A stretch of DNA of 62,371 nucleotides, filler included, from Stramenopiles sp. TOSAG23-6 (GCA_900128565.1; 26 parts of 26 records of this genome joined end to end with filler, not necessarily neighbours in it); one strand, 5' to 3'. Counted from the whole stretch's first letter, positions 1 to 62,371 are shown. Program-made: numbers and translations. The notes: generated by a model not told the origin, from the sequence alone.

Positions 1-88
1 TTTGGAAAAATATTTCAAAAAAAAATTCGTTAGGTACAACATTTCGTACGNAAAATAAATTCGAAATTTAAAAAAAAATAAAACGTAC

Positions 89-657
89 ATGGTATATGGG
101 CTATTAAGCTCAGGGAGCCAAACTCGTTCACTTTGTTTCATTGCAGCAACAAGTAAGCGCTTTGATCGATCTATATTAAACACTTTTTTAGTATTTACTT
201 TACCACCGCTACTTGAATGAACAGAAGATATTGGAAAAATATGTCGAACTCCAACTTCAGTGCCTTTCTCAAGAAACCATTCCCATCGAGAAGCTTTCCG
301 AAGAAGAGACATTCCAACGATAAGCTCGTTCACTGAAGCATTTGTACTCTCCGAAATTGATATAATACTCCCACCAATAGAATTATTCTTAACCGTGTCT
401 AATTTAACTTGATAGCGACTTCCACAACCATCAACTACTTTAATAACATCACCTTGACGACACCTCAGAACCTTGTGAGCATGACGCGTTTCTTCGAGAG
501 AAAGGTACAAACTATCTCCAACCTTACTACTTTTTGGGGAGACTTTAGAGCAAAAGAAAGGTGTTGTAGTTGGGCCTGTTCGACTGCTGAAACAATAAAC
601 AAGTCTCTGTCGTTTAACCAAGAAGTTAGACGATCTAAAAGACCGGAGCAAATTCAT
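89..657 (-). CDS. rsmE: RsmE-family rRNA m3U methyltransferase, exon 1 (3' truncated), with a presequence-like N-terminus
   Basis: Manual translation (absent from the ORF track): EETRHAHKVLRCRQGDVIKVVDGCG...KASRWEWFLEKGTEVGVRHIFPI...RLLVAAMKQSERVWLPEL. A family intron begins at 88. Confidence 0.85.
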
Positions 658-918
658 TAGAAAATATGCATCAAAGTTTAGTAGCTATACTTCTGCAAAT
701 TAAAAAAAATGTTTGATTCCTAAAAAAAAATATTACGGAAATGCGCGCTGGATGAATGAATTGGATTTCGTGTGATTTAGATGATGGTGATGGCCGGATG
801 GTAGTCAGTTCGAATCGCTTACTTACACAAGTATAAAATTCGAAGTTTTTCTGAACGAGAACTGGCATTCACACAGTTGTACTACTAAATTTTCTAGTAC
901 CCAGCAATAGATTATAGC

Positions 919-2221
919 ATGTCTTCATCTACACAGGTAACTAAACGAGCCCGTATTGACCCTATCGACACTAGTAGCGTTATTGTTATTCCTTTAATCG
1001 CGGCAAAAGCATTGAAGCGTGTTGTAGAAAGTGCAGGCTATTTTGATAAATCTCGAAAAGCCGCGATGCTCCCAGAAAATCAGGCAAGTGCTTTATATTC
1101 TGGTATGGATGTTTGTACAAGTGGTCACCAAAGGGTGAAGTTTTTATGTATACCCATAATATCCCCCAAACTTGTCTCTAGTTTGCTTTCTACATGGATG
1201 AAAATCGTTCAAACGAATGAAATGAACCTGGAGGTTGATACACTTCACAACACAATTGAAGAAGAAGTTAGACACCACATAAAAAAAGAGCAACGTAAAA
1301 AGCCCCAAGGTTCAATTATCGACCCATTGACTGGTGAAAAATACAGAAAGAAAATAATTTCATCATTTTTATTGGCAAAGGTACTACATTTTCAACTACC
1401 AGTAAATAAGAGGTTTGAAGTTTCACAGAAACAAATACTTAAAAACAGGGTTAAATCTCCAGCAGCAGTTGAAAATTCTCAATTAAATACAAATCTCCAA
1501 AAATTAAGTCCTCTAGAATTATCTGAAAAATATGCTGCTTCTCGTCCTCGACCACCTACATATTTAGATTTAAAACTTTCAGTTCCTTCTTGTGCTTACT
1601 CATATTTATCAAAATGTTATGGCATTGAAAGACTAGAAAATATTTTATGCGCTTTGACTGAACCACCAAGACGAACAACGTTAAGAGTGAATACGTTAAA
1701 ATATACTCGTAATGAGGTACTTTGTCTATTAGAACCAATCCTTGCCCAATTAAATATCGAATTGAAAAAAGATAATCGAACACCTCTGAAAGCAATTCCA
1801 CATCCTATAATTAACGATTGTATAGTAATCCCATCTTCTCCAGTACTTCAAGTCGAACCATTTTGGGATGCACGAAAAGAAATTATTGTGGATCGTCTTT
1901 GTGGTGAAGCAGTTTTGCGTGGTGCAAATATATTTGTAAAAGGTATTCGTGGTGCAAGTCTAGGTATTAAACAAGGCGATAAAGTATGTACGTTTTCATT
2001 ATGAATTTCGAATTTATTTTTTTTTCGTACGAAATTTTTTACCTAACAAATTTCGAATTTAATTTTTTTTACGATATATGTGTAACTGTGGATCTTCAAC
2101 CAAGTTTAAAGGGTAAGTCTGAAAGCATTGGACGTCCTACAGTTGGTAGTAATAGCAACTTATTCATAGGTAAAAAAGTGTATATTGGTTCAGGTATTGC
2201 CATGCTATCTAGAAAAGATAT
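919..2221 (+). CDS. NSUN6: NSUN6-like RNA m5C methyltransferase with PUA domain (exons 919-1987, 2080-2221; 3' truncated)
   Basis: PPRRTTLRVNTLK, EIIVDRLCGEAVLRGANIFVKGI, GDKV|CVTVD and KVYIGSGIAMLSRKD match the NSUN6 N-terminal/PUA region. Confidence 0.8.
1988..2079 (+). other. Family intron, GT-AT, 92 nt
   Basis: gta t|gtacgtttt...acgatatat|gt gta act joins GDKV-C-VTVD in frame. Confidence 0.75.
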
Positions 2222-2318
2222 GTATTTTTTATTTTTTTTAATTTCGAATTTATGTTTTTTTGCGTACGAAATTTTGTACCTAACGAATTTTTTTTTGAAA
2301 TATTTTTCCAAAATACAT

Positions 2319-2418
2319 NNNNNNNNNNNNNNNNNNNNNNNNNNNNNNNNNNNNNNNNNNNNTTAATTAATTAANNNNNNNNNNNNNNNNNNNNNNNNNN
2401 NNNNNNNNNNNNNNNNNN
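2319..2418. other. Artificial scaffold linker (44 N + TTAATTAATTAA + 44 N), first of 25
   Basis: An identical all-frame-stop linker occurs at 2363, 4781, 7199, 9616 ... 60034, with spacing falling monotonically from 2418 to 2385. This indicates contigs sorted by length. Confidence 0.98.
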
Positions 2419-2461
2419 ACTTTCATTACTTTCATTACTTTCATTTTCTTCAGTTACACGT

Positions 2462-4736: not shown

Positions 4737-4836
4737 NNNNNNNNNNNNNNNNNNNNNNNNNNNNNNNNNNNNNNNNNNNNTTAATTAATTAANNNNNNNN
4801 NNNNNNNNNNNNNNNNNNNNNNNNNNNNNNNNNNNN

Positions 4837-6458: not shown

Positions 6459-7154
6459 TCAAAACCTCTTTTTGTTTTTTTTCATATTTGGTATTTTCAC
6501 GGAATTTGTAATGGAAGTGGCAATAAGATTTGAATCTCTTTCATATTCTCTATCTTTCCGAGTTGTTTTTACTTTACTCATTCCATATTTTGCATCATTT
6601 TCTGCTTTTATCTCCTGGTGCCACTCTCTAGACAATTTCATTTTTTTGTCTAGTTTTTTTTTTAATTCTTTTNNNNNNNNNNNNNNNNNNNNNNNNNNNN
6701 NNNNNNNNNNCAATTTCATTTTTTTTTTTTTTTCTAATTTTAATTCTTTTTCATGATCAATTCGTAAATGTGCAAGAGCCGCACGTGAAATAATCTTTTC
6801 CGTTTCCATTGCCGATGTATTGTGACAAAATATATTTGTTTTCTTACAAAAAAGTTAGGTACAATTTTGTAAAAAAAAAAATAAAAAATTAAGTAAAACA
6901 TGTATACGAAAGACGTACATGTCACTCGTAATGCGACTTTATTTTGCTGCATTTTATAGCTATTCAATTCATCATTGGATGATTTCTTTTGTAATTCTAT
7001 TTCTTTCAAAAGTTTTTCGGGTTTTGTTTGTTTGTTTTTCTCGAAAAACGAATTTGAAAATTTTCAAAAAATTGTAAGACTTTATAAATTAACAAATTCA
7101 CTCATCGCCAGCCAGGATCGCGCACTTTTTGCTATCTTCGTATCCGCCTTTCGT
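6459..7154 (-). CDS. Hypothetical coiled-coil protein, C-terminal part, with GT-AT family intron 6815-6918
   Basis: VALRVT|SAMETEK joins in frame after excision. Confidence 0.5.
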
Positions 7155-7305: not shown

Positions 7306-8329
7306 ACGCCGACAACTTTGTAATTGTTCAGAAAGAGACAAAGAAAGATCATTTGAGGTGAATTCCAAATAACGTTCAATACCAGCTGCTTTTTGTAGAA
7401 ATTGACCAAAACTAGACAAAAATAATCTCAAATTATTTAATTCATAGGGGACTTTGCTCCCTAGCGTTGCAATTGAATCTCCTAATTGATTGCGTGATGT
7501 AAGAGTCGTACGCCACTTACGAAGCATTCTTTCATATCGTTTTGTCGCGAGTACGAGGGCATGTTTGTGTAAAAATATTTTTTTTTTTAGGTTTGTACAA
7601 TTTGTTAGGTACGGAATTTACTATAAAAAAAAATCGAAATGGAAGAAAAATAAAACATACAGCTTCCTGGTCCTTAAATTCCTGTGGAACTCCATCATCA
7701 TAATGACCACCACCTGACAGTTGCCTTTGAAACCATCCACCAACACCACCACTAGATGGGGATGAATTGGATGATGTTGACGGTGTAGCCGAGGAAGAAG
7801 ATGATGGTGGAGATATCATACCTCGGGCTGTAGGTTGTTGACGCACTCCTGATGTATTTTGGAAAAATATTTCAAAAAAAATATCGTTAAGTACAAAATT
7901 TCGTACGAAAAAAAATTTCGAATTTGAAAAAAAGTAAAACATACATACAAGAAGTCGACGTTTAATTGTAGGCCACTCTTTCGGTGATGCACTCAAGAAT
8001 TGCATCAAAGCTTTAGACTCCTTGAATACTGGATGAGATGCCACGCGTTTTAGAAATAATTGAAGTATTCGCCTCGCCTGCTCACTACTCTTACAGTTAT
8101 CTGCATCGCCTGCAAAAGCGGGGACTATTGGGTCCAAGAATTCATATGAGAGTGCACTATCTAACCATGCAAAATCTTCCACAAATCTCACGACAGAACG
8201 CCCCGGAGAGACAACATGATATTCTCGATCTACAGTAGTATTTAATACAAAAGGACCACTTGAACCAAGTACTAAACGATTCATTGCTTCTTGGTCAGGA
8301 AGTGACCTGAATGGCGTTGACATGCTCAT
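7306..8329 (-). CDS. Sorting nexin-like PX(-BAR) protein (exons 8329-7945, 7851-7661, 7560-7306; 3' truncated)
   Basis: PX motifs VVRFVEDFAWLDSAL and RRILQLFLKRVASHPVF...MQFL, followed by a helical region. Contains three family introns. Confidence 0.7.
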
Positions 8330-8812: not shown

Positions 8813-9512
8813 TTAATTTTTTCTAAAATCATATAATAATGATTCAAGTTGTTCATCTCCACGACAAATAGGGTTAGTAGGGTTAGGGTTCTTTGCTAAA
8901 CCAGAAGCACTATCAACCTTTGATAAACCTGGCGGTCCATATTCTAGATATTTTTTATTATCATTTAAATGCACCAAATGTACTAAAAGTTTTGCTTCAT
9001 TGAAAATTTTCCGCCTTAATTGTATTTTTTTTTCCTTTTCTTTTTGAATTTCCGTTTTTAGAAATGATTGCCTGGTTGCCTCTACCTTAATTGTCTTTTT
9101 ATCAGGAGTATAATCTTGTATTTTTAAATTTTCTTGTAGCAGATCCTGATGTTCTAAACTATGAAGATATTGTGTATTGTAAATCATTTTTTGGTACATA
9201 TGTATTGTGAAAAATATTTTTTTTCTAGTAAAAGAAATCGTTAGGTACAACATTTTGTACGAAAAAAAAATAAATTTGAAATTAATGATGGAAACGTACG
9301 TGAAATTCTTTGTCACTTTGGCTTATGCATGATCGACATTTTGTTATATTATCTGCACCAACAACGACAATGGTTTCCTTATGTAAGCCAAGCTTTCCAG
9401 ATTCTCTTCCTATGTTCGAACAAAGTATTTCCCTTAGCGCAGCACAGAAAGTATTATATTCGAGGTATTGATTACATTTAACATCTGCAGCAAAAAATAA
9501 AGTGTTCAGATC
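8813..9512 (-). CDS. Hypothetical protein C-terminus with an EF-hand-like loop (exons 9512-9300, 9199-8813)
   Basis: LFFAADVKCNQYLEYNTF. Excising the GT-AT intron 9200-9299 joins DKEFH|MYQKM. Confidence 0.5.
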
Positions 9513-10210: not shown

Positions 10211-10251
10211 CAAATTCGGAATTTAAAAAAATAAAATAAAAATGAGTCTTA

Positions 10252-11182: not shown

Positions 11183-11987
11183 ATGACCGATTTAGGAAAT
11201 CTACTTGAATGTATATTATCAGCGGCAAGTTTTCGAGATAACGATGATCGTGCACCTGTCCAATTCTCACTTTCTCAGAGAAACCCTTTCGAGGAAAAAC
11301 TTTCAACTATTTTATCGAATACTTCAGATAGTGATTTGCTGTCATTGCTAACACTAGTAGCAAGCGGAGACCCATCGCGTTGTCGGACACTATTAGAGGC
11401 TGTGCTGAGTGCGGCTAGGGCACTTCCGGGAAAGTCACCAGTTAAAAAAGGGCGGTGGCGTTATCAAGTTTTGAAAGTCTGTGTTGATTTAATGAATGCT
11501 GGTCGAATGATCGGACTGAATGCACAAAAGTGTACCCATCTTCTTTTATCTGAGTGCGATGAACTTGAAACATCGGAAGTAACCCAATTACTTGAATTTA
11601 TTGTTGAAGGCTTAAACGAACGTCTCATTGCTGATGATGTGTGTTATGATGGCGCAGCTCTTGAGTTGATTCCAAAATTACTTAGTAAATTTGAAGAGCA
11701 TGTAACATACAACGTTGTTGTTCAGGAAGGCGAAGAATCTACAGAAATGCTTGGTAGTGCATATTGCGATTATATAGTTCAAAGTATATGTACTTCACCT
11801 TGGCCATCATCTACTGTTGTACGTTTAACGACACTATTTAAAGAAATGTCAATATACGTTTTCATAGTGAATTTCAATGTTTTTTTTTATTCGTACAAAA
11901 TTTCGTACCTAACGATTTTTCACGTGTGAAATATTTTTTCCAATATGTTTGTCCAGAACGTCTTCTGTGTGTAATTCGTAAAGTTCT
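11183..11987 (+). CDS. FANCI: FANCI-like protein, N-terminal part (intron 11854-11948, AT...GT)
   Basis: GAALELIPKLLS...SICTSPWPSSTVVRLTTLFKEM resembles the FANCI N-terminal solenoid. Confidence 0.65.
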
Positions 11988-17015: not shown

Positions 17016-19142
17016 TCCGATACATTGCTGCATTATATTGGTCAATTATGACTCTAGGAACTATGGGATATGGTGATATTATAGCTGTAACAGGATCTGA
17101 AATGTGGTTAGCAATAATAATAATGTTGTTTGTTTTAGTTTTTTCAATTTCAGATTTATTTTTTTTTATAGAGAATTCCGTACCTAACAATTTTTTTTTC
17201 CAAATATTTTTTCACAAGACATAGTAGGTAGTTCAATATATGCTTATGTAACAGGTTCTGTGTTTGAATTAGTCACTGCAATGAATGAAGATGAAATTCA
17301 TTATGCTAGTTCTGTTGATCAAATGAATAGATTTTGTAAAGACTCTAATATGTTTTATTTTTTTTCAATTTCGAATGTAGTGTTTTTTTTTCGTACGAAA
17401 TTTCGTACCTAACAAATTTTACAAAAAAAAGATATTTTTTCACAATAAATGTACACCTATTGAAACTAGACTTCGTCTTCGGAGATATTTTATGAATTGT
17501 AAAGGTGTTTTTAAAGAACAATATACTCATAAAGTATTAGAGCATATGTCACCAGGATTACGTCAAGAAGTAACCAAATACACGTTAGGTACATTTTCAC
17601 TATTCATTTCAATTTCAAATTTGTTTTTCATTTGAAATTGTTTCTAAAAAAATTAAAAATTTTATATTTTTTATTTTCATACCAAATTGTCAAATTGTAT
17701 ATCTTACCATTCTAATATCTTTGACATATTTTTCCACTTATAGGTCCTTGTATTAAAAGCGTTTATTTTTTTCGTGGAGGAAATAATGAATCATTGTTTA
17801 TTGCACAAATAGCAAGTGCTTTAATTCGAAAAGGTTTCCCTGCCGGAGAACAACTTGTACATTGTCTAATTTAATTTCAAATTTATTTTTTCATATGAAA
17901 TTTCGTACCTAACATTTTTATTTTTTTTTTTTAAATGAAAATTTCATACCTAACATATACCAAATTTTTGAAATATTTTTTCACAATACTTATATTTGCC
18001 GGAGAAGAGGCGCTGAAAATGTATATCATACAAAAAGGTTTAGTAAATACAACTGGGAAAATATTTAGACGTGGTGATGTTTTAGGTACGGATATTGTGC
18101 TAGGAAAAAGACGTACGTTTTCATCATGAAATTCAAATGTATATTTTTTTTTGTAGAACATTTTGTACGTAACGATTTTTTTTTTTTTAATACAAAATTA
18201 TATACCTAACAATTTTTTTTTTACAAAACATTTTTTTTTCACAATATATGTCTATATTCTGCGACATGTCTTTTATTTACTGATGTGATGGTTTTACAAA
18301 AAAAAGATTTTGATAAAATACTACAAGTATGTTTTATTTTTTTTAATTTCGAGTTTTTTTTTCGTACGTAATTTTGTACCTAACGAGTTTTTTTTTCTAA
18401 AATATTTTTTCACAATACAAAGTAATGATTTTACATATCAAAAAAATAAAATTCGAATTTCTGCAAATTGGATTTTTGCACGTAGTAGAATAAGAGCATT
18501 GGGGAAAATGATACGATTATGTCGAAATATGACATTATCAGAATCAATAGCAATAGGAAAACGAATGTATGTTTTTTCATCATGAATTTCAAATTTAGTT
18601 TTTTTTTTTGTAGTAGATTTTGTACCTAAGGATTTTTTTTATGACTCACCAAAAACAAATATATATATATATATATATAATACATGTATGTTGACGCGTG
18701 GAATGAAATTAAGCCTGCTGTGTTTATAGTATTAAAAAGGGCTGGAGTAAAATCAAAACAAAAGCAAAAGTACAACCCTAACCCTAAAGAGGACAAAAAT
18801 TCTAATTCTTTAAGTATTGGTGACCTTGACAGTAGTATTGATATCCTATCTAAAACTCCTCAACTGTTCAGGCAGCATTACTTCCCTCTCCATATTGAAT
18901 TATCTCGTAAACTAGTACAGGAATTACTACTTAGACAAGATATAATAGTACAAAAAGCTTGTGAAAATTTTGTAAAACCAACTCATAATAAATTCATACA
19001 AGATGTTGAACAGTTTACTGCTGCCGCTTCACTAAAAGTATCACAAAAAATAGCGCATCCTATACAGCATGCAATTTTTTTAGGACTATGTATACTAGTA
19101 TTATCAGCTTCAATCACTGGACTATGTTGTTTAGCCATCTAA
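17016..19142 (+). CDS. Cyclic-nucleotide-binding-domain K+ channel (KCNH/CNG-like), C-terminal half, 8 exons
   Basis: Pore YWSIMTLGTMGYGDI, S6 ML|VGSSIYAYVTG, C-linker SPGLRQEV, CNBD FPAGEQL|IFAGEEALKMYIIQKG. Introns: 17128-17222, 17348-17450, 17589-17743, 17857-17991, 18113-18249, 18327-18420, 18567-18685. Confidence 0.85.
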
Positions 19143-19372: not shown

Positions 19373-20037
19373 GTGGGATAGATTTCAGAAGCGAAGTTTA
19401 GAATGGAAAACTGAAAAAGAAAAAATTAAGCCATTTTTATTAGAAGCGGATGATGTTACAATACACAAAGAGCTCAGTAGAATTGAACCCAAATTAAAGA
19501 ATACTATGAAAGCACATCGAATACAACAAAAGTTAAATGGAAATTCATTCGATGGTGTATGTTTTCATCGGGGATTTTAAATTTATTTTTGTTTGTACCA
19601 AAATCTGTACCTAATGATTTTTTTAGTAAAAAAAATATTTTTTCACAACACATGACTCTCGATCCAAGAAAAGAAGAAAATGGTACAAATGTACTGGAAC
19701 TAGGTTTTGTGTTTTTGTCTTTAGTGTAATTTTGCTTCCAGTTTTTTTTCTAGGACTTCGTTTGCTCTACGTAACGTCACAACACATTAATGCAGGTGTG
19801 TTTTATGCTCAACAAAATCCATATCGTGGGATTGATAGTCTTGTTAATCAGGTATATACACCAACTTGGTATTCTGATCATTGGTATAATTCATGGGATA
19901 CTGATAATCCAAAACATCAAACTCCTTCTGTATTAAAGGCAACTCCAATTTCGAAGAATCCAATTTTTATGAAGCCTCTAGAAGTTATCAATATTGATAG
20001 AATAAAGAGAGAAACGATGGCTCTTGACGCTACATGA
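19373..20037 (+). CDS. Hypothetical single-pass membrane protein C-terminus (GT-AT intron 19557-19653)
   Basis: SFDG|DSRSKKRRKW joins in frame to the TM-containing ORF ending at 20037. Confidence 0.55.
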
Positions 20038-37181: not shown

Positions 37182-38463
37182 ATGGTAGTATCATCGGAGA
37201 ATGTTGAATCAATTGTACATAATGTGGTTAATAATACACAAGTAGTTGACCTTCATACTCATTTATTTCCATTTACTCACGATGATTTATTTGTGTATGG
37301 CATTGATGAGTTATTGACATATCACTATCTCATTGCTGAGTTCTTTGCAGTTGCGTCGAATGAAATTTCCACTGAAGTGTTTTTCTCTCTGACAAAACAG
37401 AAACAAGCAGATTTGATTTGGTACAAACTGTTTATCCAGCGTTCCCCAATATCCGAGGCTTGTCTGGGCGTTTTGACAGTTCTAAAAAAGTTAGGTTTAG
37501 ATACTTTCATTGTAAATCGTGATCTTCAAGGTATTCGTTCATGGTATGCAAAATTTTCACCAGAAGAATTTGAATCTTTAGTATTTACAAAAGCTAAAGT
37601 ACGATATGCAGTCATGACTAATATCCCATTTGACCCAGTCGAAGCAAAACATTGGATGAACAACAAAAAAGTTTCAAGTTATTATGTACGTTTTATTTTA
37701 TTTTATTTTTTTTTTGTTTTTCGTACGAAATTTTGTACCTAACGAATTTTCAATTTTTTTTTTGAAATATTTTTCCAAAATAAACAAGTCTGCTCTGCGC
37801 GTAGATGCTTTACTTTCAGCCAATGGATGGGACACTGTCTCAAAATCGCTTGTTGCTGCTGGTTTTCCAGCATCTATTGAAGGTGCACGAGAATATTTAC
37901 GATCTTGGATTAAACGAATGAACGTTTTTTTTTTTGAAATTTTTTTTTTGAAATTTTTTTTTTTGAAATTTTTTTTTCGTACGAAATTTTGTACCTAACA
38001 GTTTTTTTTAGATTTTTTTTTTTTGAATTTTTTCACAATAAATATCTCCTGTATATTTAATGGCATCGACGCCCTGTGGATTTGCAACTCCTCTTCCATA
38101 CCAAAATTCCGTACCTAAAAACCCTAACCCTAACAGCAGTGAAGAATATCCGTCACCACAAACACTTCTTGTTGATGTTATAATATACGTTGCTCGTGAA
38201 CAAAATTTGGCTGTAGCGATGAAAATTGGCGCTGATCGATGTGTAAATCCTTGTTTGCACACAGCTGGTGATGTATATTTTCATCATGAATTTCAAATTT
38301 ATTTATTTTTTTTTTTTTTATAGAAAATTTCAAATTTTTTTTTTTTTTTCAAAATTTTAAATTTTTTTAAACAATTTTCTGTTGTTTCACATTTTGTCAA
38401 TATTATAGGGTGTCGAAGTCGCTGATCTTTCAATCATCAAATATTTCTGTCAAAATTTTCCAG
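37182..38463 (+). CDS. Uronate (glucuronate) isomerase of the Bacillus halodurans BH0493-like amidohydrolase group, 3' truncated
   Basis: VVDLHTHLF, GIDELLTYHYLIAEF, QADLIW..LF..RSPISEAC.GV, VMTNIPFD. Introns: 37686-37785, 37920-38043, 38273-38408. Confidence 0.82.
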
Positions 38464-40863: not shown

Positions 40864-41067
40864 NNNNNNNNNNNNNNNNNNNNNNNNNNNNNNNNNNNNN
40901 NNNNNNNTTAATTAATTAANNNNNNNNNNNNNNNNNNNNNNNNNNNNNNNNNNNNNNNNNNNNCGGTGATAGTATGTTTTCATCATGATTTTTAATTTTT
41001 TTTTCATACGAAATGTTGTACCTAATACATATTTGAAAATTTTTTGAAATATTTGTTCACAATATAT

Positions 41068-43418: not shown

Positions 43419-44897
43419 GTGCCTTTTTATGCTGTGCCTCCTGTGTTGCTATTATTAAATGCGTTTCCTGTTAGCGCTATTGGAAAATTAGACAGAAAGC
43501 TAGTATCATCTGAAAATGCAAGAAAATTACCCAAAATGATTTCGACAATGTCAGCGAATGAAAATTATGAAAATATTAAGGAAAATAATGAAAATAATGA
43601 AAATATTAAGGAAAATAATTATAATAATGATGATGGTGTTTGTGTATCCGAGGAAGATATTTTAAAGACTCCAATTGAACATCAATTGGCATCAATTTGT
43701 ACGTTTTCCTATACAATTTCAAATTTATTTTTTTATTTTTCCTAGAAAATTTCGAATTTCAAATTTATTTTTATTTTTCCTAGAAAATTTCGTACCTAAT
43801 GATTCTTTTTTCGACATATTATTTTTCACTATACAGGGGAAACATTATTAAGTTTGGATACGTCCAGTGTTGGAGCATTTGATTCTTTTTTCCTCGTTGG
43901 TGGTCATTCTTTACTCGCTGTTCGTTTATGTAGGTTTTTTTTTTTTTTTGAATTTTTTTTTAAATTTTTTTTTATAGTTTATTTTGTACCTAACAAAAAA
44001 CAATTTTTAATTTTTAAATATTTTTTTTTTTGTAGCAGCTAAAATAAAAGCAGAATTCTTTACTAAAAAAGACCCGGGTAATGAATCTTCTGTATGTTTT
44101 ATGAAAAATCATTTGAAATTAAGTGACATTGTTCAAAATCCTGAATTGAGACAAATGGCAAGTTTAATTGAAGAAAGATTAAAACTTCATAATGTAAATA
44201 CAAAATCGAATACAAAATCAATACATTCTGAAACATCTAAAAAATTTAATTTTTCTATTGATATAGAAACTAAATTATCTGATGATATTTATCCTGCAGC
44301 AACACGAAAAACGGGATATTCACGAGTTCGTCCATTTCAACAAATTGAATCAAATAAGGTTCCAAATCGGATATTATTGACTGGAGCTACTGGTTTTCTC
44401 GGTGCTTTTCTATTATTAGAATTGTTATCAAATACGACAGCGACAATTTATTGTATTGTCCGTGCTAAAAATGATGATATTGCTTTCAAAAGAATAATTG
44501 ATAATTTATCAAAGTATGACATGAATAATGATATTATTCTTTCAAGTATTGAAAACGATCGAATTATTGGAATCTCTGGTGATTTATCGCGTATGTTTTT
44601 GTATCATGAATTTTACTATTTATTCCTTACAAAAAATAGGTTTTTTTATTTGTGTAGTACAAAATTTCATACCTAACAAAAACAAAAACAAATTTCAATA
44701 TTTTTTTTTTCCTTTATAGTAAATTTCATACCTAACAAAAACAAAAACAAATTTCAATATTTTTTCATGATACATGTCCTTTGGTAGGATTATCCACTCG
44801 GGCGTTTCAAGAATTAGCAACAATTATTGATGTCATTATTCACAATGGTGCAGAAGTGAATTTAATAAAATCATATGAATCACTTAAATCTACAAAT
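43419..44897 (+). CDS. NRPS-like adenylation-thiolation-reductase protein (internal exons)
   Basis: A-domain end (PFYAVP...FPVSAIGKLDRK), T domain (LASI|WETLL...DSFFLVGGHSLLAVRL) and thioester reductase (ILLTGATGFLGAFLL, GDLS|RPLVGL, IIHNGAEVN). Confidence 0.88.
43699..43836 (+). other. Family intron with canonical GT-AG ends (defines the family register)
   Basis: att t|gtacgtttt...cgtacctaat...cactatacag|gg gaa gives the conserved Trp of the T domain. Confidence 0.85.
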
Positions 44898-45065
44898 GTA
44901 TGTTTTATTTTTTTTTTTTAACAAAAAAATCGAATTTTTTTTTCGTACGAAATGTTGTACCTAACAATTTTTTTTTTTACAAAAAAAAAAATTTTATAAC
45001 CAAAAAATTTTTTTTTTTTTTTTTTTTTTTCATACAAAAATTTTTACCTAAAAAAAAATTAATTT

Positions 45066-45136: not shown

Positions 45137-45573
45137 TCATTCTCAAGATGAATCATCCCAACCAAAAGAACCAAAAGAACCTGGTCAAGTTGGACGTCGT
45201 CCAAATGCATTATCGTATAGATCACTCATAAAAGCTCATTTGAAAACAGGGGGTCAAATTCGAAATTCGAGAAGTGCATGTATGGTTTTATTTTTTTTTC
45301 AATTTTTTTTCAAAATTTTTTTTTTCGTACGAAATTTTGTACCTAACAAATTTTTCTAGATTTTTTTTTGAAATATTTTTTCAAAATGCATCTGCTCATA
45401 TGGGAGGTGTTGGTTGTAATATTTTTTACAGACTTGCAGCAACTTCATTATTCAATTGTGAAGCCGAAAGAGGATATAGAGCTGTTGTGAAGGCAAATCG
45501 GCAAGGTAAGAAAGGCATCGCTGCACAAATTTTGGCAAGTGAAGAGCTCGCCATGGCTGATGATGCTGGATAT
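45137..45573 (+). CDS. Two internal exons of an unrelated hypothetical gene (intron 45280-45391)
   Basis: NSRSA|SAHMGG joins in frame. It is neither phase-compatible with nor homologous to the reductase domain. Confidence 0.5.
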
Positions 45574-46665: not shown

Positions 46666-47019
46666 ATTGTTGAAAATAATTGTTGAATAAATTGATAGTT
46701 TAAGTGAACGACCNAANACAANGGAAAAAGACATGCGCTTCCTTCTACTCTTTTTCACACAAACTTTTTGTGCTGAATTTCTTGACAAAGCAAAGTTGAA
46801 GCAGGTTTGTTTTATTAAGTAGTAATTTTTGGTACAACATTGTGTTTTTTTGACTACCTCTCTATCCGAGTCTTTTTCGATCAATCATGAGCCCGCCCGC
46901 AACAACACACACACTTACTACGTATATTGTACGCACAATAATAATAACTATTGTTGTGGAACAAATAGAGGTAATACTACCCCCCTGAATTTGCATTCTA
47001 CATAATATAATCATCCACC

Positions 47020-47918
47020 ATGGCTGCTGTTGCAAAGATTGCAGAAATTGAACTCGAGATTTCTCGTACACAAAAAAATAAAGCTACAGCAAAACATCTT
47101 GGATCCCTCAAGGCAAAACTTGCGAAACTAAGACGTGAGATTCTTGCGGACGGCCAAAGTGGTGGTGGCGGCGGTGGACAAGGTTTTGAAGTTCAAAAAT
47201 CCGGTGACACCCGTGTAGGTTTGATTGGTTTTCCATCTGTTGGAAAATCAACTTTACTTAGTAAACTAACAAATGTGAAATCTGAAGTCGCAGCGTATGA
47301 GTTTACAACATTGACTTGTATACCAGGTGTAATTTACTATAAAGGTGCAAAGATCCAATTACTCGATTTACCTGGTATTATTGAAGGTGCTAAAGACGGC
47401 AAAGGACGCGGTAAGCAAATTATTGCAACAGCACGAACATGTAATGTTTTACTGGTCGTTTTAGATGTAAATAAGCCACTGACTCATCGTTATCTCATTG
47501 AGAAAGAGTTGGCAGGTTTTTCCATTCGACTAAATCAACAACCTCCAAATATCAAATTTAAAAAGAAAGAAAAAGGAGGTATCAGTTTCACATGTAAAGA
47601 TAAATCCTTAGATATTGATACTGTCAAATCAGTCCTATCTGAATATCGTATTCATAACGCTGATGTCAACATTCGAGAACCTATATGTTTTATTTATTTT
47701 TTTTTTTACAATTTTTTTTTTCGTACGAAATTTTGTACCTAACAAATTTTCAAATTTTTTTTTTGAAATATTTTTCCAAAATACATAATTGCACAGTGGA
47801 ACAGTTGATTGATGTTATTGAAGGAAATCGAATTTATATGCCCTGCCTCTATGTCTTGAATAAAATAGATTCAATCTCAATTGAAGAATTAGATCTGTTA
47901 TCAACTGTCCCACATTAT
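47020..47918 (+). CDS. DRG1: Developmentally regulated GTP-binding protein (DRG1/Rbg1), exons 47020-47682 and 47787-47918, 3' truncated
   Basis: [55 protein letters not shown]. Confidence 0.95.
47683..47786 (+). other. Family intron, AT-AT, 104 nt
   Basis: gaa cct|atatgtttt...caaaatacat|aat tgc aca gtg keeps the conserved CTV..LIDV of DRG. Confidence 0.65.
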
Positions 47919-52989: not shown

Positions 52990-53845
52990 ATTTCAGATGC
53001 GACTTTAAGAAGTTGTTGATATGCGATTTGTATTCCTTGACCCCAAACAATTCCTTCTCTACGACGGCGATCACCTAAATATTGCTTAAGCCCTTGAACA
53101 AAACGAGTTCTATCAGAATAAAAAGGAGTTTCCTGTATTGTGAAGAATAATATTTTTTTTTCGTACAACATTTTCTTTGTTAGGTACAAAATTTCGTATG
53201 AAAAAACAAAATTCATGATGGAAAAAAACGTACATGTAACTGAGAGTTACGGCAGTAAATATACAATAATTGGATTTGGTCAACCAAATCATTTTCGTTG
53301 CGAGCTGCATCAAGCACAGCTTTTACACGATTACGTGCATCATCATCCTGATTATATCCTGCGAGATCGACAAATAATTTTTGTCCACATGAGGAGAGAA
53401 AATGTTCCCGCGCTTCGCGAATTGCTTCGATCCATTTCTGTCGTGCTTCGCTGTTTTCTGCCACAAGAGTAAAATGTTTGCCCTTCCGCGTTTGTATTTC
53501 AAGACTATTACGACGGCCAGATGGATCTACCTTTGGAATAATCTTAATAATATCTTCTAAATTAATACAACCTTTGAGCTCTTCGCCTTTATAGTATTTT
53601 ACATATCTATCGCAAAGCATGAATAACCTACGCTTCCAGTTGCGAATAAAATGACCCTGTTTGATAAGATAACCTTCCTTCAAAATGACATAACCATTAC
53701 TATCAACATCACGCACGCGCGTTGGTGTCACTGCTTCCCAGCAACCACCAAGCATTTCTTCATTTACAGCGTCTGTGTCTTCATCACATACAACTTCAGG
53801 TTTTTCACTGTCCAAGCGCAGACGCGCTAGGTCATCAGCCGACAT
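52990..53845 (-). CDS. PH-domain protein, 5' part (GT-AG family intron 53133-53233)
   Basis: LKEGYLIKQGHFIRNWKRRLFML...ARQKWIEAI. Confidence 0.85.
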
Positions 53846-54179
53846 TACTCGATAATAAAATTCAATTTAAAAATAAGTGCAGTTGGTATTGACGCTTAAT
53901 TTCTAAATAGAGCATACAAAACAATGCGCAAAACGTTTATTTTTTATATTGCGGAAGATATCGATATTCCGCCAACTCGAGACAAAGAAAGAAGACAACA
54001 ATTAAATTTGTCGTGTCAGCTGTGCGCGAGATGGAATGGTGAAGTCGAAATTGAATTTTATTGGAGCTAGGGTTAGGGTTTGGAAGTCAGTTCGAAACAT
54101 CGAAACAAAGAATTGAAATTGACTGACATCTTGATTAAATTATCCTTATCCAAAGTTATTCATTAGTATAAGATAGATC

Positions 54180-55116
54180 ATGATGAAATACACCAATCTG
54201 TGTAAATCCACCATATATACACATTTAAAAGCAAAGCTCTACAATACCAAGAACCAATACATTCCAAACGTCTCCAGAAGACTTTCGAATACTTTGGCAT
54301 CCTCCACGAAACAACCCTTCACAGTTCTTGGTATTGAAACCTCGTGCGATGACACAGCTGCTGCTGTTGTCACATCTGATGGTCAAATTTTAGCTGAAAT
54401 AGTTTCTTCACAGTGGGAACTAAATGCAAAATATAAGGGTGTTCATCCTCTTTTTGCATCTCGTGCTCATAAAGAAAATTTACCGAGGGTTATCACTGAA
54501 CTCGAATTAGAGTTGAACTCGTCGAGGTATACCAAATCAAACAAATCAAACAAGTCAAACAAATCAAACGTAGAAAAATCAAACTTTGATAAAAATAGTT
54601 GTACACGTATACAAACAAAAACAAGTGATGATAATATTGGTACTTTGTCAATGAAAACGTTGAGAGGACTTTCAGCAGTTGATGCTATTGCTGTAACAAC
54701 TGGTCCTGGATTAGAAATGTGTCTAGATGCTGGAGTATGTACGTTTTGATCATTCACTGTAATTTGTTTTTTCTGTCTGTACTTTTGCACCTAACGATTT
54801 TTTTTGAAACTAAAATATATTTTTAGAATACATCGTTTGCAAAGGATTTAAGCAATCGTCTTCAAGTTCCTATAATACCCATTAATCATCTTGAGGGTCA
54901 TATTCTTGTGCCTCGGTTAGTCAGTGATGCATCAACAAATGAAGTCCATAAGATAGAAAAACAAATAGACCAAACCTTTCATTCTAACAAACAGATAGAA
55001 AAACAAATAGACCAAACCTTTCATTCTAACAAACAGATAGAATTTCCATTTCTTGTACTTTTAGCGTCTGGCGGACATACAGAATTATTACTTGCAAAAC
55101 GTTTAGGTTGTTATAT
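54180..55116 (+). CDS. OSGEPL1: Mitochondrial tRNA t6A synthase TsaD/Qri7/OSGEPL1 (exons 54180-54738, 54834-55116)
   Basis: VLGIETSCDDT, IAVTTGPGL, GV|SFAK, NHLEGH, FPFLVLLASGGHT. Confidence 0.93.
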
Positions 55117-55330: not shown

Positions 55331-57604
55331 ATGTTTTGCTCCGGGTTAAACTTTCCCGCAATAATCTGGCCGGGCAAGCTTTTCTCACCACCACGCCACA
55401 TGGCAGAGACTCGCGCACCAATTTCATGAGGACTACTAAAACCACCATTACTAGAACTTGAACCATCTGTACTTAGATGCATTCCCTTACTTCGATTTTC
55501 TTTTACTATAGAACTTACTGGCTCAAATGCTATAATTTCATATTGGCTTATTATAGGATCAGTGGTATAGTACCTATATGTATGCTTTGGAAATCCTAGA
55601 TTGACTCGAAGAACACGACCTTGGCTTGATATTGGTTGGTTTATTATACAAAGTTTGTAATCGCTAATTTGATTTGGAGGTCCGTCCAAAATGTCTATTA
55701 ATTTCTCAGCATTACACCCATATGAAAATAGATACGGAAATCTTTCACTATCAAAACTATTTGTTGATTTTCCAATGTACTGACCACTAATCATTTCCTG
55801 TAATATCAATTCTTTGGACTGTAATAGTTGTGGTGTTTGTCTTTTTCTACTTCTATTTTGCACATTTTGTAAATTATTTGAGGGGTCAATTAAATCAGGA
55901 ATATTATCGTCATCCGATGACACACTACTAAAATTATCTGAATTTTGATATAATTGAATATTCGGAGAACTATGATTCCTCAATCCAGGCAAACTACNNN
56001 NNNNNNNNNNNNNNNNNNNNNNNNNNNNNNNNNNNNNNNNNNNNNNNNNNNNNNNNNNNNNNNNNNNNNNNNNNNNNNNNNNNNNNNNNNNNNNNNNNNN
56101 NNNNNNNNGAAATGCCTGATGAAAACGTATAGAATAAAAACTCAAAAAAAACCTTAGGTACAAACTTTCGTACCAAAAAATAATTGAAATTAATGATGAA
56201 AACGTACATGGTGTATTCTTGGGACTTTTATCATATATTCCAAAGAAGAAGAAGGGTGAACTTTCAAATCATCTGATGAACCAGATGTTGAAGAAAATAA
56301 ATTTGTCATTTCATTAGGAATTGATGTACCACTAATTTTAAAAGCTTTTCTCAAAATTCTCAAGACAGATAATTTTCGTTCTTTTGGCTTTGTTGTACCA
56401 CTTAAGGTAGGATGTGTAGAATTATTCCAAGCCCAATCCGCTAAATAACTCCATCCTGCTGTGTGACCATACTCATCCGGCTTTGGCCAGTCGACATCCT
56501 CGACGCCGTCTATAGGATCTATCACAGGGGTCCTAGTAATTTCACGAGTTTGACGAAGATAGTTCAATCCGTCAGGNNNNNNNNNNNNNNNNNNNNNNNN
56601 NNNNNNNNNNNNNNNNNNNNNNNNNNNNNNNNNNNNNNNNNNNTCATCTCTGTATCTGTTAATGTATTTTGTGCATTTTTTGATCGAGTAAAATGAAAAG
56701 CAGCTTTGATAATACCTTCCGGAGGATTTTGCAAATGTTGTTCAACATGCATTTGATTTTCAGAAATTTCGGAATTACTAAAATTATGTTTCTGCTTCAC
56801 ATCATTTGATTCTGTAAAACCTTTTAAAAATAAAAGAGCACGAGCATTTTCATGTCCGTCTCTGACATCTAATAGATTTCGTGAACTTTTTACACATGCC
56901 ATGAACTGTTCTTTAGTAGTATTATGATTTCGCCAGTCAAACTGCATCAACAATTCTGCAATCACGTGTCTTGACAGTGAATTTGGGTCATCTAGCCCAT
57001 CACCCNNNNNNNNNNNNNNNNNNNNNNNNNNNNNNNNNNNNNNNNNNNNNNNNNAAATATAGGAATCATGGCTTCGACTGTGGGAGGGAAATCTTTAGCA
57101 CAATGGATTAGCTTTGCGTATAAAACAGGATCAGAGAGTATTCTTTGACTTCTTTCTGGTAATTTTTGAGGGAGAAGATAACCAACAACATTTTCACATT
57201 CCTCACTCATCTCAGAAGATGTTGCATCCTGCAGTTCAGCTACCTCTATTTTTTCATCATCAACTTTATTATCGTTCGTATGCTGCATTGCGTCTACACT
57301 ATTTACGTCATTTGTAACATCTTTGTCAATCCTTTTTTTATCAAAACTTTTCATATGTTTACGTCTCCAAGAGGATCCACCAGTTACTAAAAAGAGCATC
57401 GCTTTCAAACAATATTTCCAGTCAGGCTGCGAGTACTGAGGATTTTTCACAGCATTTTCCCATAACGGCAACGTAGGTAATTCTTTATCAGGTGAACGAC
57501 CGCCGAGCAAAAAATGACAAAAGAAAGCCATAGCATCTTTTTCTATTAAAACATATCTGTGGTGAATTGTGAGATTTTGTAAAACAGTAAAATACTCTGA
57601 GAAA
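55331..57604 (-). CDS. Internal part of a large hypothetical protein, gapped; a Tudor-like motif starts near 55420
   Basis: Consecutive minus-strand ORFs separated by N gaps and one family intron (56125-56207); IGARVSAMWRGG..LPGQI. Confidence 0.45.
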
Positions 57605-57759: not shown

Positions 57760-59936
57760 AAACATTTTAGCCATTCTTCTATTCATAACATATCATATGG
57801 TAAAGGAGCAACTACTAACGCCAACATGTCTGATAACCCAAACTCTTTATTACAACCAAAAGTGATTCAGTATGAAGTATGGATCAATTGTGAAAAAGTC
57901 ATTCCTCCAATATGTATGTTTTATGTTTTTCAAATTCGAATTTTTTTCGTACGAAATTTTGTACCTAACAAATCTTAGTTTTTTTTTTTGAAATATTTTT
58001 CCAAAATACATCAGATTGGATCGATCCAAATAAAGAGAGTGCAATGACAAGATTAGGTACGATAATTTCTAGTAAATTACCAAAATTTCTAGGGTTCAAT
58101 CAAAAGACAAATAAAAAACATAGAAAACAAAATTTGTATGGTGAAAATCAACAAACGGAAGAAAAGCTACCGATACGACCTCCTTCTCATTGTGCGTTAT
58201 TTGTAGCAGCATTTCGTAGAGATTCAAATGGGAATAAAATAAAACTAGGTCGGACAGAGACTTGTTTTGCTTCTGTCAATTTAGGTTTGTCAACGAAAAC
58301 AAAAAAAGGAAAAATTTCATCTCAAGCTTCTTTTGATAATTTGCATTGTGTTAATAAATATGGTGCTTCTGTTGCTTTTAGTATATCTTTATTACTAGAG
58401 ATTAATATAGGTCAAAATAATTCTGCAGATAATTCGATACTATTTGAACTATTTTGTGCTTCTGCTGAAAAAAAACTTTTGAAGAGCAATAGTAAATTTC
58501 GTTTATTAGGAACTGCACAGTGCAATGGACATACAATACTTTCAACTCAAATGAATAACAACACGTATAAAAGTAGCAATCGACGTAATGATATAACGAA
58601 TGGAATTGGTAAAGACATTCATTCAGAATCAAGAATTACATTGCATTTTAGTACGAATACGTGTAGTAAAAATGAAATTTTTACTACACAGTCATCTCCT
58701 GCAGTAATTCATCTAATACCTGTTCAAAAACCGCACACGATTCCTTTATGGCCTGCCTTTCCTGCATCACTATTTTCCAAGAGTACGTGGCAATGGTATC
58801 GTTTTTGTGATGAAGAGTCGCAAATGATGCGCAAAGAAATAGTTGTTGCAGAGAGATCGAGTGATACGATGTACTCTGCGAAAATTCCAGAACTTTTTCT
58901 AACTCAAAGGATAAAAGAAATTAAAGAAATGATGGTTGGTGCAGTTCGCTGGGCTGCAGCGTTAGATGGATGTATGGGTGTATTTGGTACGAATATTGAT
59001 AATGATGATAATGTTGATATTTCTGGTGACTTATTAAATTGTAAAAATTCAATTGAAATGGAACAAAAAGCTCACGAAGAAGGATGGAGTACTTGTCTCG
59101 TCACTATTGAATGCGGTCGAGGTATGCACCTTGACTTTGATGTAAGTAATCCATTTGTTCAACTCACATTTGTACCATCATCTGTGACTGGTCGCAAAAA
59201 TGACATTATTGGAAGAACAAATACAGAGTATGGAACATCAGAACCTATTTGGGGTATGCAAGAATATCCAACCCCCCCAAGTTTTGCCTCACAAAAGTCT
59301 TGTGTTGGACCTATAATTGTTAGTCGAGATGGCCGACGTTGTAGTATAATGTATGTTTTATTTTTTTTCAATTTATAATTTATTTTTTTTGAAAATTTTG
59401 TACCTAACAAATTTTAGTTTTTTTTTTTTTGAAATATTTTGTCACATCACATAAATACATCATTGAATAATAGTACTAAAATAACAAAATGTGATGGAAA
59501 AAATGTAATGTCATCGCGTAAAAGAGGTCAATCTATTTCCACAACTCAAAAAAAAAGAAGTGATTCTAGAACCCAAAATTTCACTCGTAGTAAATTTACG
59601 ACATTTTCTCATCCAAACACTTGGACTACACAAGATCCTCGCAAAAATAGTATGTTTTCAAAATTGATTGTTTTGCATTTTCTTTTTTTACGAAATTCCA
59701 TAGCTAACGATGTTTTTTCTATACTATTTTGTTACAATACATGTGATTCAGGGACCTCAAAGTGGTGCAAATCTAGAGAAAATACAATAGGATTTTTTGT
59801 TCCTCCCGTTCCAAAACAAACTCTGAGCGAAAAATCACAAAAACAAATGGAAATTTGTGCAAAGAATTTACAGAAACTTGGCGGTGATTGGGGCTTACTA
59901 CCTACCCGATCTGGAGGAAGGGAAGGCAACCAGCAT
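57760..59936 (+). CDS. C2-domain protein, possibly inositol polyphosphate 4-phosphatase-like (internal exons)
   Basis: KLGRTE, SNPFVQL...IIGRTNTEYGTSEPIW, VAERSSDTMYSAKIPELFL. GT-AT introns at 57914-58011, 59351-59452 and 59650-59742. Confidence 0.5.
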
Positions 59937-60154
59937 GTATGTTTTATTTTTTTTTTTAAACAAAAAAATCGAATTTTTTTTTCGTACGANNNNNNNNNNN
60001 NNNNNNNNNNNNNNNNNNNNNNNNNNNNNNNNNTTAATTAATTAANNNNNNNNNNNNNNNNNNNNNNNNNNNNNNNNNNNNNNNNNNNNTAGGTACAAAA
60101 TTTCGTATGAAAAATAAATTCGATTTTTTTGTAAAAAAAAAAAATAAAACATAC

Positions 60155-60835
60155 ATTGTACCATAATCGAATTCCACTATATTCTGGCCAGTCTAATAAT
60201 TGTGCTAAGCGAACAATTTGTCTATACACCCACTCAAATTCTTTAGGAAGTGTAGTAGCTCTGCGACCATCGAGTATATATTTTTTTTTATTTTCTTCTT
60301 GAACAGCTGCAAGAATAATTGCTCCTTCTCCAATGGAAGACACAGTCCGCTCTTCATTCCACATGTCACGAATTATTGTTTGTAATAATATATTCTGAGC
60401 AAGGATATGTGCATCGGCAATATCACCACCATTTATAAGTATAGCATCGTACTCAAGTGGTCGAACTTCAGAAAATTTCATAGGAGAAGTAAACGTTTTC
60501 GACGTTATCATTTCGTCATAAATTTTCTGAACGGAAGAACTGGTTGGGTAATACCATTGTAGTCCAAAGGGTGGATTGAACCGTATTGGATCTGGTAAAA
60601 CCTTTTCACCCATACTTGAGGCAAAGTGTACTTCCAAACCGTTTTCTGTGAGTACTTTCCATGTAATAGCAACGCTCCATGGGTCATATCTACGTTGTAA
60701 GGGCAGTAAAACACGAGACACGGTTTTTGCATGTCTCGAGAAGATGTCATATTGAATACGACTTGAATATGGTGATATAAAGGCCAAATAAAATAGGATC
60801 GAAAAGACGACACCAGATAAAAATGATCTTGACAT
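60155..60835 (-). CDS. DJ-1/PfpI-like protein with an N-terminal signal anchor, exon 1
   Basis: YDPWSVAITWKVL...VHFAS, YDAILINGG, ILDGRRAT. Confidence 0.7.
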
Positions 60836-61126
60836 TCTATTTCACTATAAAAAGCTTCTTTTGAGTATTATCATACAGGTTATACTACTACCTACTTGTA
60901 AGTAATTACACTTTTTTTTGGATACTGTTCGTCACTTGATAATAAATTGAAAAAATCCAAAAAAAAAGTTCAATTTTCAACGGATATGTTTAGCTCGAGA
61001 AATCGGGGATTTCGTGTTAACGTTATATTTTGTAACGGTTGTCTGCAAAAAAAATCATCATTGAAAAAAGCATCCTTCTGTGGTATTTTTATCATTAGGA
61101 AAACCATAGCTAGTGTATATCAAGTA

Positions 61127-62274
61127 ATGCCAATTTATGATACGAATATCAAAATAATGCCATCATTTAATTCAGGTATTGTTAATGGAAATAGTCCTCG
61201 GCGATTCACAAAATTTAAAGAGATCGATGAACGTATTTCACATAACATTGAATGGGTCAATAATTCCCTCAGTTACATCCAAAGAGTGAAATATAAACGG
61301 AAGCAGCGAGTATGGGGAGCACAACATCGATGCTCTTGTTTATTTTTCTTGACTGGTCCATTTTCATTAAGAGGTACAGTGGCTGGGCATGCATTTCCAC
61401 CGGCAGTGTTTTCATGCGTATGGTTCATTTGTTGGTATTTTATTTTGGAGGAACAAAAAGGATGGATTGAAGGACTGACTAATTTATATTCTTCTATGAT
61501 GCTTGTCATGACTGCTCTTGGATTTCTTTTAGTGCTGAGAACGCAAGATGCTTATCATCGATATTATGAAGGACGAAAATTATTAGGTTCAATTTTAAGA
61601 GCAGGGACAAATATCATGTTATTATTGGGTGTATATATTAAACAATATGAAGTTGCTGGAGGTAAAGATAGTCATTCCATGGCTGCTGATGCGTTAAATA
61701 TCTGTCGAATGATAAATGTCACATTTGGACTTATTCGTCAATCTATCCGTGAATCTCGTTCTCCTCCACCTCAGTTTGCAATTGATCATAGCCCACCTCC
61801 AAAATGTCCATGCATTCATGAAGGTAAAACAGTAATATCTGCAGGTAAAACAAAAAAAACAAAAATGTTTAAAAAAGGAAGTCGGCAATTTGCTGAAGAT
61901 CCTGTAGGAATGCCCCCGATTAAAGTGATGATGAGAGAATCTGAAATTGATTATTTAGAACCGTATTCACCAAGTTTTAGACCTGGAATTGTTATACAAG
62001 AATTAATTAATATGTATGTTTTATTATTTTTTTTTTTTAAATTTTTTAAAATTTTTTTTTCGTACGAAATTTTGTACCTAACAATTTTTATTTTTTTTTG
62101 AAATATTTTTCTACAATACATTGTGACTAAAATTTCACTGAGAGGAAAACAAAGTGAAACTGATTGTGTTATATTTAATATGAAAATTTTTGATGAAACA
62201 AAAAGTATTTTAAATGCTGCAGCTGGAATGGGAAGAATTGTAGATACACCCACTCCTTTTAGTTATCAGCATAT
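61127..62274 (+). CDS. Bestrophin-like (YneE/UPF0187-type) channel (exons 61127-62013, 62122-62274)
   Basis: LGFLLVLRTQDAYHRYYEGRKLLG and RIVDTPTPFSYQH. Confidence 0.82.
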
Positions 62275-62371
62275 GTATGTTTTTTTTTTTTTTCAACAAA
62301 AAAATCGAGTTTTTTTTTCATACGAAATTTCGTACCTAACAAATTTTTTAGAATTTTTTTGAAATATTTTT

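Follow-up and report, generated by a model that had tools for sequence, protein, structure and literature searches.

A candidate introner family, ending mostly in AT, in the genes of a marine stramenopile

An AG at the intron end is among the most conserved signals of eukaryotic genes. To our knowledge, the wholesale exceptions are few (Fritillaria, Amoebophrya and euglenozoans), and in those lineages the 5′ splice site is degenerate as well. Here we describe a family of elements, about 100 nt each, in a 62,371-nt stretch of DNA from Stramenopiles sp. TOSAG23-6 (GCA_900128565.1; the whole stretch is called the window), whose copies interrupt protein-coding genes, carry yeast-like splicing motifs and mostly end in AT. 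The introners of Micromonas pusilla and Aureococcus resemble miniature inverted-repeat transposable elements (MITEs): as far as the available part of PMC11282704 describes them, they are thousands of near-identical short intron copies that have terminal inverted repeats and a short duplication of the target; the element bears one splice site, and the other lies at the duplication. The same partial source describes transposon-derived introns with inverted repeats and target duplications in Fritillaria borealis, where the 3′ end comes from the duplicated target and the borders are AG-AC and AG-AT; these non-canonical introns are removed by the U2 spliceosome and handled by diverged U2AF paralogues, according to the accessible portion of PMC13326754. 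With the Micromonas and Aureococcus introners, so far as that material covers them, the present family shares many similar short copies placed as introns, inverted ends and a short duplication-like repeat. However, those introners take their terminal AG from the duplication, whereas here 31 of 40 visible ends are AT and two are AG.

The window consists of 26 contigs, from 2,318 down to 2,282 bases and ordered longest first, separated by stop-codon linkers of the form N44-TTAATTAATTAA-N44 (positions 2319-2418, 4737-4836 and onward likewise). Because the contigs are merely chained by these linkers, genes on either side of a linker are not genomic neighbours. To the reader behind an earlier note on this DNA, which covers 1-62371, the linker structure was invisible; it was revealed in the follow-up.

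The element family and the frames around it

We built a hidden Markov model of the element from 13 copies and searched the window with nhmmer, which gave 80 matches at E≤10, 57 of them at E<1e-3, spread over the 26 contigs. Some copies are split into two matches and contig ends truncate about 20; the loci number about 50, or roughly one per kb. The family reported in the earlier note is real, and its size comes down from about 65 to the ~50 loci counted here. The element is 92-112 nt long, starts with GTAYGT, contains a 22-nt core, CGTACGAAATTTTGTACCTAAC, and ends in ATACAT. The core occurs 14 times exactly, against none expected from 100 shuffles. A search for the identical 22-mer among JGI metagenome contigs, viral contigs and GTDB genome contigs gave no match. 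Two subfamilies can be distinguished, GTATGTTTTATTTT...CCAAAATACAT and GTACGTTTTCATCA...CACAATACAT. All 22 copies whose frame was tested, and every partial copy adjoining an open reading frame (ORF), lie in the sense orientation.

Conservation of single positions was counted in an alignment of 20 complete copies with 6-nt flanks (hereafter A1). At the 5′ end, +1 is G in 18 copies and A in two, +2 is T in all 20, +5 is G in all 20 and +6 is T in 19. CTAAC or a near variant is present in every copy, its TAA being invariant (20/20). At the 3′ end, -3 is C in 17 copies, -2 is A in all 20, and -1 is T in 17, with A, C and G once each. The invariant columns (+2 T, +5 G, the TAA of CTAAC and -2 A) are thus exactly the positions that the spliceosome reads. 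Both copies with A at +1 carry T at -1, a pair too small for covariation (n=2). The CCTAAC branch-like motif lies 34-46 nt from the element end in the seven copies counted, in close agreement with the 35-45 nt given before, and the sense orientation and GTAYGT donor of the earlier note are likewise borne out.

The branch-like site, GTACCTAAC, stands at the base of a small hairpin, GUAC...GUAC, and the consensus has inverted ends, (AT)GTAT.TTT and AAA.ATAC(AT). In 11 of the 20 aligned copies the 2-nt 5′ flank equals the terminal dinucleotide, including one AA/AA pair. The final AT of the element, which repeats the AT that usually precedes it, would stem from a 2-bp target-site duplication or else from a preference in targeting. 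Neither an empty site nor an autonomous copy was seen in the window. The analysis supports an introner-like, MITE-like family. Tandem or nested copies also occur, in which a full element is followed by a 5′-truncated second copy: at 27422-27609 (+ strand) a full element (27422-27522) precedes a truncated one (27523-27609), both ending in ATACAT, and excision of the 188 nt keeps the frame; the others are at 17872-17989 and 18113-18249, the latter a composite (double) element on the + strand that ends in ATATAT and is in frame. Such a pair must apparently leave as one unit to preserve the frame.

If the elements are removed up to their terminal AT, the flanking exons should join in frame. We excised each copy from its GT to the terminal AT and asked whether the longest upstream and downstream ORFs then join. 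The automatic version of this test tried 33 starts and placed the 3′ end properly in 19; 16 of these join, one fails at the end found by regular expression, and two (27422 and 40972) were untestable. The failing copy, at 59351, is out of frame at the regular-expression end, 59460, and in frame at the nhmmer-defined end, 59452. Frames checked by hand also fit for 54739-54833, 7561-7660, 1988-2079, 17128-17222 and 11854-11948. In total the frame is restored in 22 of 22 testable copies, compared with one in three by chance.

For two copies the junction is fixed by homology. The first, on the + strand of a DRG gene (47683-47786), starts with ATATGT and ends in ATACAT. The upstream exon (47011-47682) aligns to residues 4-223 of P0001, the best protein-database match of this gene (85% identical), and the downstream exon (47787-47918) to residues 224-267, with no gap. 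Since the exons abut at residues 223/224, the excised piece is 47683-47786, with neither a GT start nor an AG end; the cut can slide by one base only, giving TA..CA or TA..TA. The sole in-frame GT-AG alternative, 47687-47796, would leave 10 residues between HNAD and LID, a spacing of 12 in P0001 and 11 in P0010 and thus absent from the homologues counted, and would destroy three residues identical in P0001.

The second homology-fixed copy lies on the + strand of a TsaD/Qri7-like gene (54739-54833) and reads GTACGT...GAATACAT. In alignments with 8ide_A the final residue of exon 1 stands at position 136 and residue 14 of exon 2 at position 148, so that the first residue of exon 2 extrapolates to 137, assuming an ungapped helix as in 8iey_A and 4wq5_A. 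A canonical rival is present, from GTATGT (54735) to TTTTTAG (TAG at 54826), with borders 4 nt and 7 nt from those of the AT cut; it is in frame, and it would add one residue and lose a conserved V. Two further features of this gene were noted. At 54930-55040 (+ strand) about 15 residues are tandemly duplicated, a feature missing from the solved homologues, and the PDB alignments show about 36 residues inserted between two matched blocks.

Placement of the junction by homology failed for an NSUN6-like gene, for the second exon of a K+ channel gene and for a carboxypeptidase gene, and Pfam profile coordinates failed too. The claim that excision up to the AT restores conserved proteins accordingly divides: the junction is set by homology in DRG and TsaD and by frame in the other three. 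In the NSUN6-like gene the element (1988-2079, + strand, GTACGT...ATATAT) has its frame from the hand check, homology setting the upstream side only. In the channel gene the element (17128-17222, + strand, GTTTGT...GACAT, frame by hand) directly follows the pore exon, which matches residues 238-271 of AKT1. A further case from frame is the element at 7852-7944 on the - strand of a PX-domain-like gene, which ends in ATACAT: use of the nearest AG creates a TGA at the junction itself or, with the upstream donor, a stop after 10 codons, whereas with the AT end the frame is open for all 63 codons up to the next donor. The statement in the earlier note that the nearest AG can yield a stop or a wrong frame holds for this copy.

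The 3′ ends were tallied by hand from the nhmmer matches. Forty ends are visible: 31 AT, two each of AG, AA, AC and GT, and one TT. Four matches were excluded as unclear and possibly AG-ended (31785-31822, 35214-35249, 44898-44975 and 56147-56207); a related intron at 43926-c.44040, not among the nhmmer matches, likewise stands outside the tally. Within A1 the corresponding figures are 17 AT and one AG. A single T-to-G change would give CAG, yet the AG end is rare. The earlier note had counted 25 AT and six AG among 37 copies. A terminal G misread as T is excluded, since AT is the family consensus and the same TsaD copy recurs in an independent DNA run. These data support the view that, to restore the proteins, the element ends would have to be GT (or AT)...AT.

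Proposed mode of removal

We think it probable that the elements are a very abundant, non-autonomous, MITE-like DNA transposon family that persists in genes because it is removed from transcripts as an intron. We infer removal at the RNA level, with the spliceosome as its agent, from the sense orientation, the invariance of the positions that the spliceosome reads, and proteins that would be impossible with ~100 nt retained; judged from the genes themselves, a functional DRG, TsaD or channel protein could not be made if the ~100 nt stayed in. Strict sense orientation also speaks against an event in DNA, because DNA insertion and excision are indifferent to strand.

In the mechanism that we propose, each copy would come with a strong 5′ splice site, GTAYGT, and a branch site, GTACCTAAC, of its own, and with no AG. 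The major (U2-type) spliceosome would carry out the removal, using GTAYGT and CTAAC for the first step. For the second step CAU would serve instead of CAG; the A at -2 is kept, and the last base would be U or, occasionally, A, C or G. The removed stretch would begin with the G of GTAYGT and finish with the final T of the C-A-T end, and excision of the element plus one AT would restore the original codons exactly. Choice of the 3′ site at a fixed distance from the branch motif is unlikely, because the distance from the branch-like motif to the end varies from 34 to 46 nt. The terminal C-A-T with its invariant A at -2, which would be the transposon's own end or the 2-nt target duplication, appears to fit better than position. 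The simplest reading is that the C-A-T end of the element is taken in place of C-A-G, with A at -2 still needed. The earlier note had proposed a U2-type spliceosome with little need for AG that picks the 3′ site by position or by motif; the GT (or AT)...AT ends, the sense orientation and the splice-like motifs favour that proposal in part, its fixed-position variant is unlikely, and splicing without AG is plausible. Whether the major spliceosome of a free-living marine protist routinely finishes at C-A-U for some ten thousand transposon-born introns with yeast-like 5′ and branch signals, its 3′ site coming from the terminal motif or target duplication and only the A at -2 being required, is in our view evenly poised.

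We compared environmental sequencing runs with contig 23 only, at 90% likeness: a seawater DNA run (X1) and three metatranscriptomes (X7, X8 and X11). In X1 a 273-nt contig spans 54708-54980 with the TsaD element and its AT intact, the sole difference from the window being at 54866; this contig has a depth of 9.15, compared with a single-copy depth of 6.9 for neighbouring sequence. No X1 contig skips an element of contig 23, and the apparent joints in this run connect different element copies, as repeat artefacts do. In the metatranscriptomes, the contigs covered exon or intergenic pieces only (53269-53479, 53537-53696 and 54033-54254 in X7; 53335-53553 in X11). Summed element depths were 143,062 and 28,255 against a single-copy depth of 6.9 in X1, 230 and 24.7 against 2.5 in X11, and 26,754 and 5,991 against 3.9 in X7. 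The polyA run has a summed depth far below that of DNA; such depths are neither copy numbers nor expression, and we did not use them as evidence. Between the divergent genes of contig 23, at 54102-54110, the runs carry insertions relative to the window (13 nt in X7; 1 and 5 nt in X1), and small insertions that differ in this way among runs indicate several strains in the sea.

Several observations weigh against splicing at C-A-U. No RNA contig from X7, X8 or X11 bridges an element of contig 23, and some contigs from the RNA libraries bear the element, as unspliced copies would. Homology fixes two junctions only, and the TsaD cut depends on an ungapped extrapolation across 11 residues. In the copy at 59351 (59351-59452, + strand) the end that fits the frame, CACAT, lies 8 nt before the best consensus ATACAT, and the 2-nt direct repeat is perfect in just 11 of the 20 aligned copies. 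Related introns that end in AG are present, so AG is not avoided: an element at 53133-53233 (- strand, in frame, in A1) ends in the canonical ATACAG, a related copy at 43699-43836 (+ strand, an nhmmer match) ends in TATACAG, and an intron at 43930-c.44040 was recognized by eye. The elements at 37686-37785 (+ strand, ending in ATAAAC) and 57914-58011 (+ strand), both in A1 and placed by the frame test, have an in-frame AG 3 nt downstream, part of a CAG in the latter, which has an in-frame internal AG in addition; such copies could use canonical splicing, with a slightly altered protein as the price. Finally, we know of no well-studied spliceosome in which U at the last intron position supports the second step.

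The intron at 43930-c.44040 lies on the + strand of a gene with a carrier-protein domain and reads GTAGGT...TACCTAAC...TTGTAG. As it reads canonical, GT-AG introns that share the branch context would coexist with the AT-ended ones.

Removal from RNA might instead depend on base-pairing between the inverted ends (AUGUAU to AUACAU, followed by UUU to AAA) that would draw the two cut sites together, without the usual reading of a 3′ site, in the manner of euglenid non-conventional or intermediate introns and the hairpin introners of Amoebophrya. This survives best among the alternatives, and we hold it to be rather unlikely. The ends are pairable in 78.9% of cells over nine pairs, but as much pairing as observed is reached in 148 of 500 shuffles, and there is no covariation past conservation. 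A terminal stem appears in the minimum-energy fold of five of eight copies; however, RNAalifold gives no consensus structure, and the fold energies are not better than those of shuffles (z from -0.2 to -2.35). The Amoebophrya introners do have 8-20-nt inverted repeats and 3-5-nt direct repeats at non-canonical borders, as the accessible part of PMC7789003 has it. Against a pairing route, the AA flank and AA end of the copy at 18327 form a direct repeat and not a pair, and the invariant GTAYGT and CTAAC suggest normal first-step chemistry.

A slightly less likely alternative, which we consider improbable, is that these are ordinary GT-AG introns using nearby cryptic GT and AG sites, with proteins that carry small insertions or deletions. 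Consistent with it, the in-frame AG alternatives that the earlier note had listed for the copies at 37686, 47683, 54739 and 57914 were found in all four, and several copies have internal AGs 10-16 nt past the branch-like motif. However, variable AG use would put the AT end in frame in about one-third of copies, not in 22 of 22. The internal AGs of the copies at 45280, 9299 and 59351 would shift the frame (on the basis of ORF length only), the nearest AG in 7852-7944 leads to a stop, and the canonical alternatives require the loss of P0001-identical residues and an unmatched spacer in DRG and a one-residue insertion in TsaD.

Introns of the U12 type, removed by the minor spliceosome, tolerate varied terminal dinucleotides. 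Their consensus is RTATCCTT at the 5′ end and TCCTTAAC at the branch, with the branch motif ~10-26 nt from the 3′ end. The R-T-A-T start and CCT-AAC motif of the element faintly resemble this consensus and two copies begin with AT, but +5 and +6 are G (20/20) and T (19/20) instead of CC, and the branch-like motif is 34-46 nt from the end; we regard U12-type introns as very improbable. A search of the window with Rfam gave no match, and no small nuclear RNA of any kind was found.

The internal eliminated sequences of ciliates are short, numerous and bounded by TA, they interrupt coding sequence, and one copy of a 2-nt repeat stays behind. That the present elements are cut from DNA in this way, or are never removed and mark dead genes or faulty assembly, is just as hard to credit: the 2-nt direct repeat with one copy left behind follows the same logic and the source assembly is very fragmented, but strict sense orientation and splice-like invariant positions argue against elimination, the TsaD element persists in environmental DNA at near single-copy depth with no DNA joint that skips it, long ORFs in the standard code and stramenopile-like proteins speak against a ciliate, and conserved housekeeping genes that carry about one element per kb and whose exon frames are intact are incompatible with insertions that stay.

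Further copies, host genes and the assembly

On the - strand, an element at 7561-7660, in the same PX-domain-like gene as 7852-7944, ends in AAACAT (frame by hand), and those at 9200-9299 and 6815-6918, both GTACGT...ATACAT and both in A1, are in frame, the latter with a short downstream ORF. All others are on the + strand. The copy at 2222-2318, an nhmmer match at a contig end, has the donor GTATTT and the end ATACAT. An aberrant copy at 11854-11948, ATACGT...TATGT, has GT as its in-frame end (by hand). In-frame members of A1 are found at 17348-17450 (ATATGT...ATAAAT), 18327-18420 (ending in ATACAA, with AA as its 5′ flank and so an AA/AA direct repeat), 19557-19653 (...CACACAT), 26740-26851 (in a cytosolic-carboxypeptidase-like gene), 30431-30527 and 59650-59742. 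The copy at 45280-45391 (GTATGG...ATGCAT), also in A1, has an internal TCTAG, 32 nt before its end, that would shift the frame. The copy at 40972-41067, in A1 as well, ends in ATATAT and has lost its upstream exon at the contig start. An nhmmer match at 18567-18685 contains an (AT)n insert and ends in ATACAT, and the element at 62014-62121, in a bestrophin-like gene, is in frame with Pfam matches on both sides.

The window has a G+C content of 26-35%, that of an AT-rich marine eukaryote, and its long ORFs stay open under the standard code. Its genes include DRG, a mitochondrial-type TsaD, an NSUN6-like methyltransferase, methylmalonyl-CoA mutase, MnmA, an M14 carboxypeptidase, the K+ channel and the bestrophin-like protein. 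The nearest named relatives of DRG are labyrinthulomycetes, at 70-72% identity, and NSUN6 has one match in the protein database, from an oomycete, at 44%; together they point weakly to a stramenopile. No transcripts of the same species were found in the protein database; the public runs that contain window sequence come from seawater, both metagenomes and metatranscriptomes. Of the 52 contig ends, at least 20 fall within an element copy, which accounts for the assembly in 2.3-kb pieces.

Two other observations concern the window more generally. On the + strand of contig 25, an exon of 446 residues (58011-59348) has no Pfam match and no homologue at E≤1e-10 among 5.8 billion proteins, and appears to be an orphan gene. 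Telomere-like (CCCTAA)n, in two or three units, occurs 14 times against none expected, at 2730, 4304, 13199, 18776, 23765, 28632-28649, 30748, 31570, 31588, 38122, 42291, 45579 and 47924. Many of these units lie within ORFs, on the coding strand and in frame, reading N-P-N-P, and those at 23765 and 47924 are directly 3′ of an intron donor. Telomerase healing of breaks, a second type of small insertion and a microsatellite are candidates for their origin.

Comparison with described intron systems

In this family only the last base seems to be freed, GTAYGT and CTAAC being kept, which isolates the question of the 3′ site: which part tolerates U, and at what cost, among U2AF-like factors, Prp8, second-step factors and the pairing of first and last bases. 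If the proposed mechanism is true, the genome would offer a natural experiment, on a genome-wide scale, in how the last intron base is recognized in the second step. Such elements can also wreck assemblies and gene models.

Ciliate eliminated sequences leave the DNA in either orientation, whereas the present elements are strictly oriented and remain in environmental DNA at single-copy depth. With the non-conventional and intermediate introns of euglenids, in the portion of PMC11282704 available, the family shares non-AG borders, complementarity between the ends and duplication-like repeats at the junctions; in those introns, however, +4 to +6 pair with -8 to -6 and neither a branch nor a pyrimidine signal is present, whereas here the pairing lacks covariation and the spliceosomal signals are invariant. 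The introns of Amoebophrya (A25 and A120) are likewise repeated, non-canonical and found in a marine protist, with inverted end repeats and short direct repeats at their borders, but in that account (PMC7789003, in part) their terminal dinucleotides are inconsistent, a clear 5′ site is missing and U1 was not found, whereas here a single family has a dominant GT...AT.

No description of a GT...AT introner family was found in the literature, which was covered partially and without supplements. A large introner survey drops families with unfamiliar splice sites unless they are supported by RNA, as stated in the accessible part of PMC12130899, and a family like the present one would be missed by that filter. 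Surveys based on annotation can thus overlook whole introner families.

Fritillaria, as covered by the sources cited above in part, shares the probable transposon origin, the inverted ends and a non-AG 3′ end, commonly AC or AT there, that here too would derive from the duplicated target. Its introns, however, mostly start with AG and have a weak 5′ site, whereas the elements described here combine a yeast-like GTAYGT with a strong CTAAC, in a protist host and with splicing as the proposed route. Compared with the known transposon-derived non-canonical introns, what would be new is that the yeast-like 5′ and branch sites are kept while the intron ends in AT.

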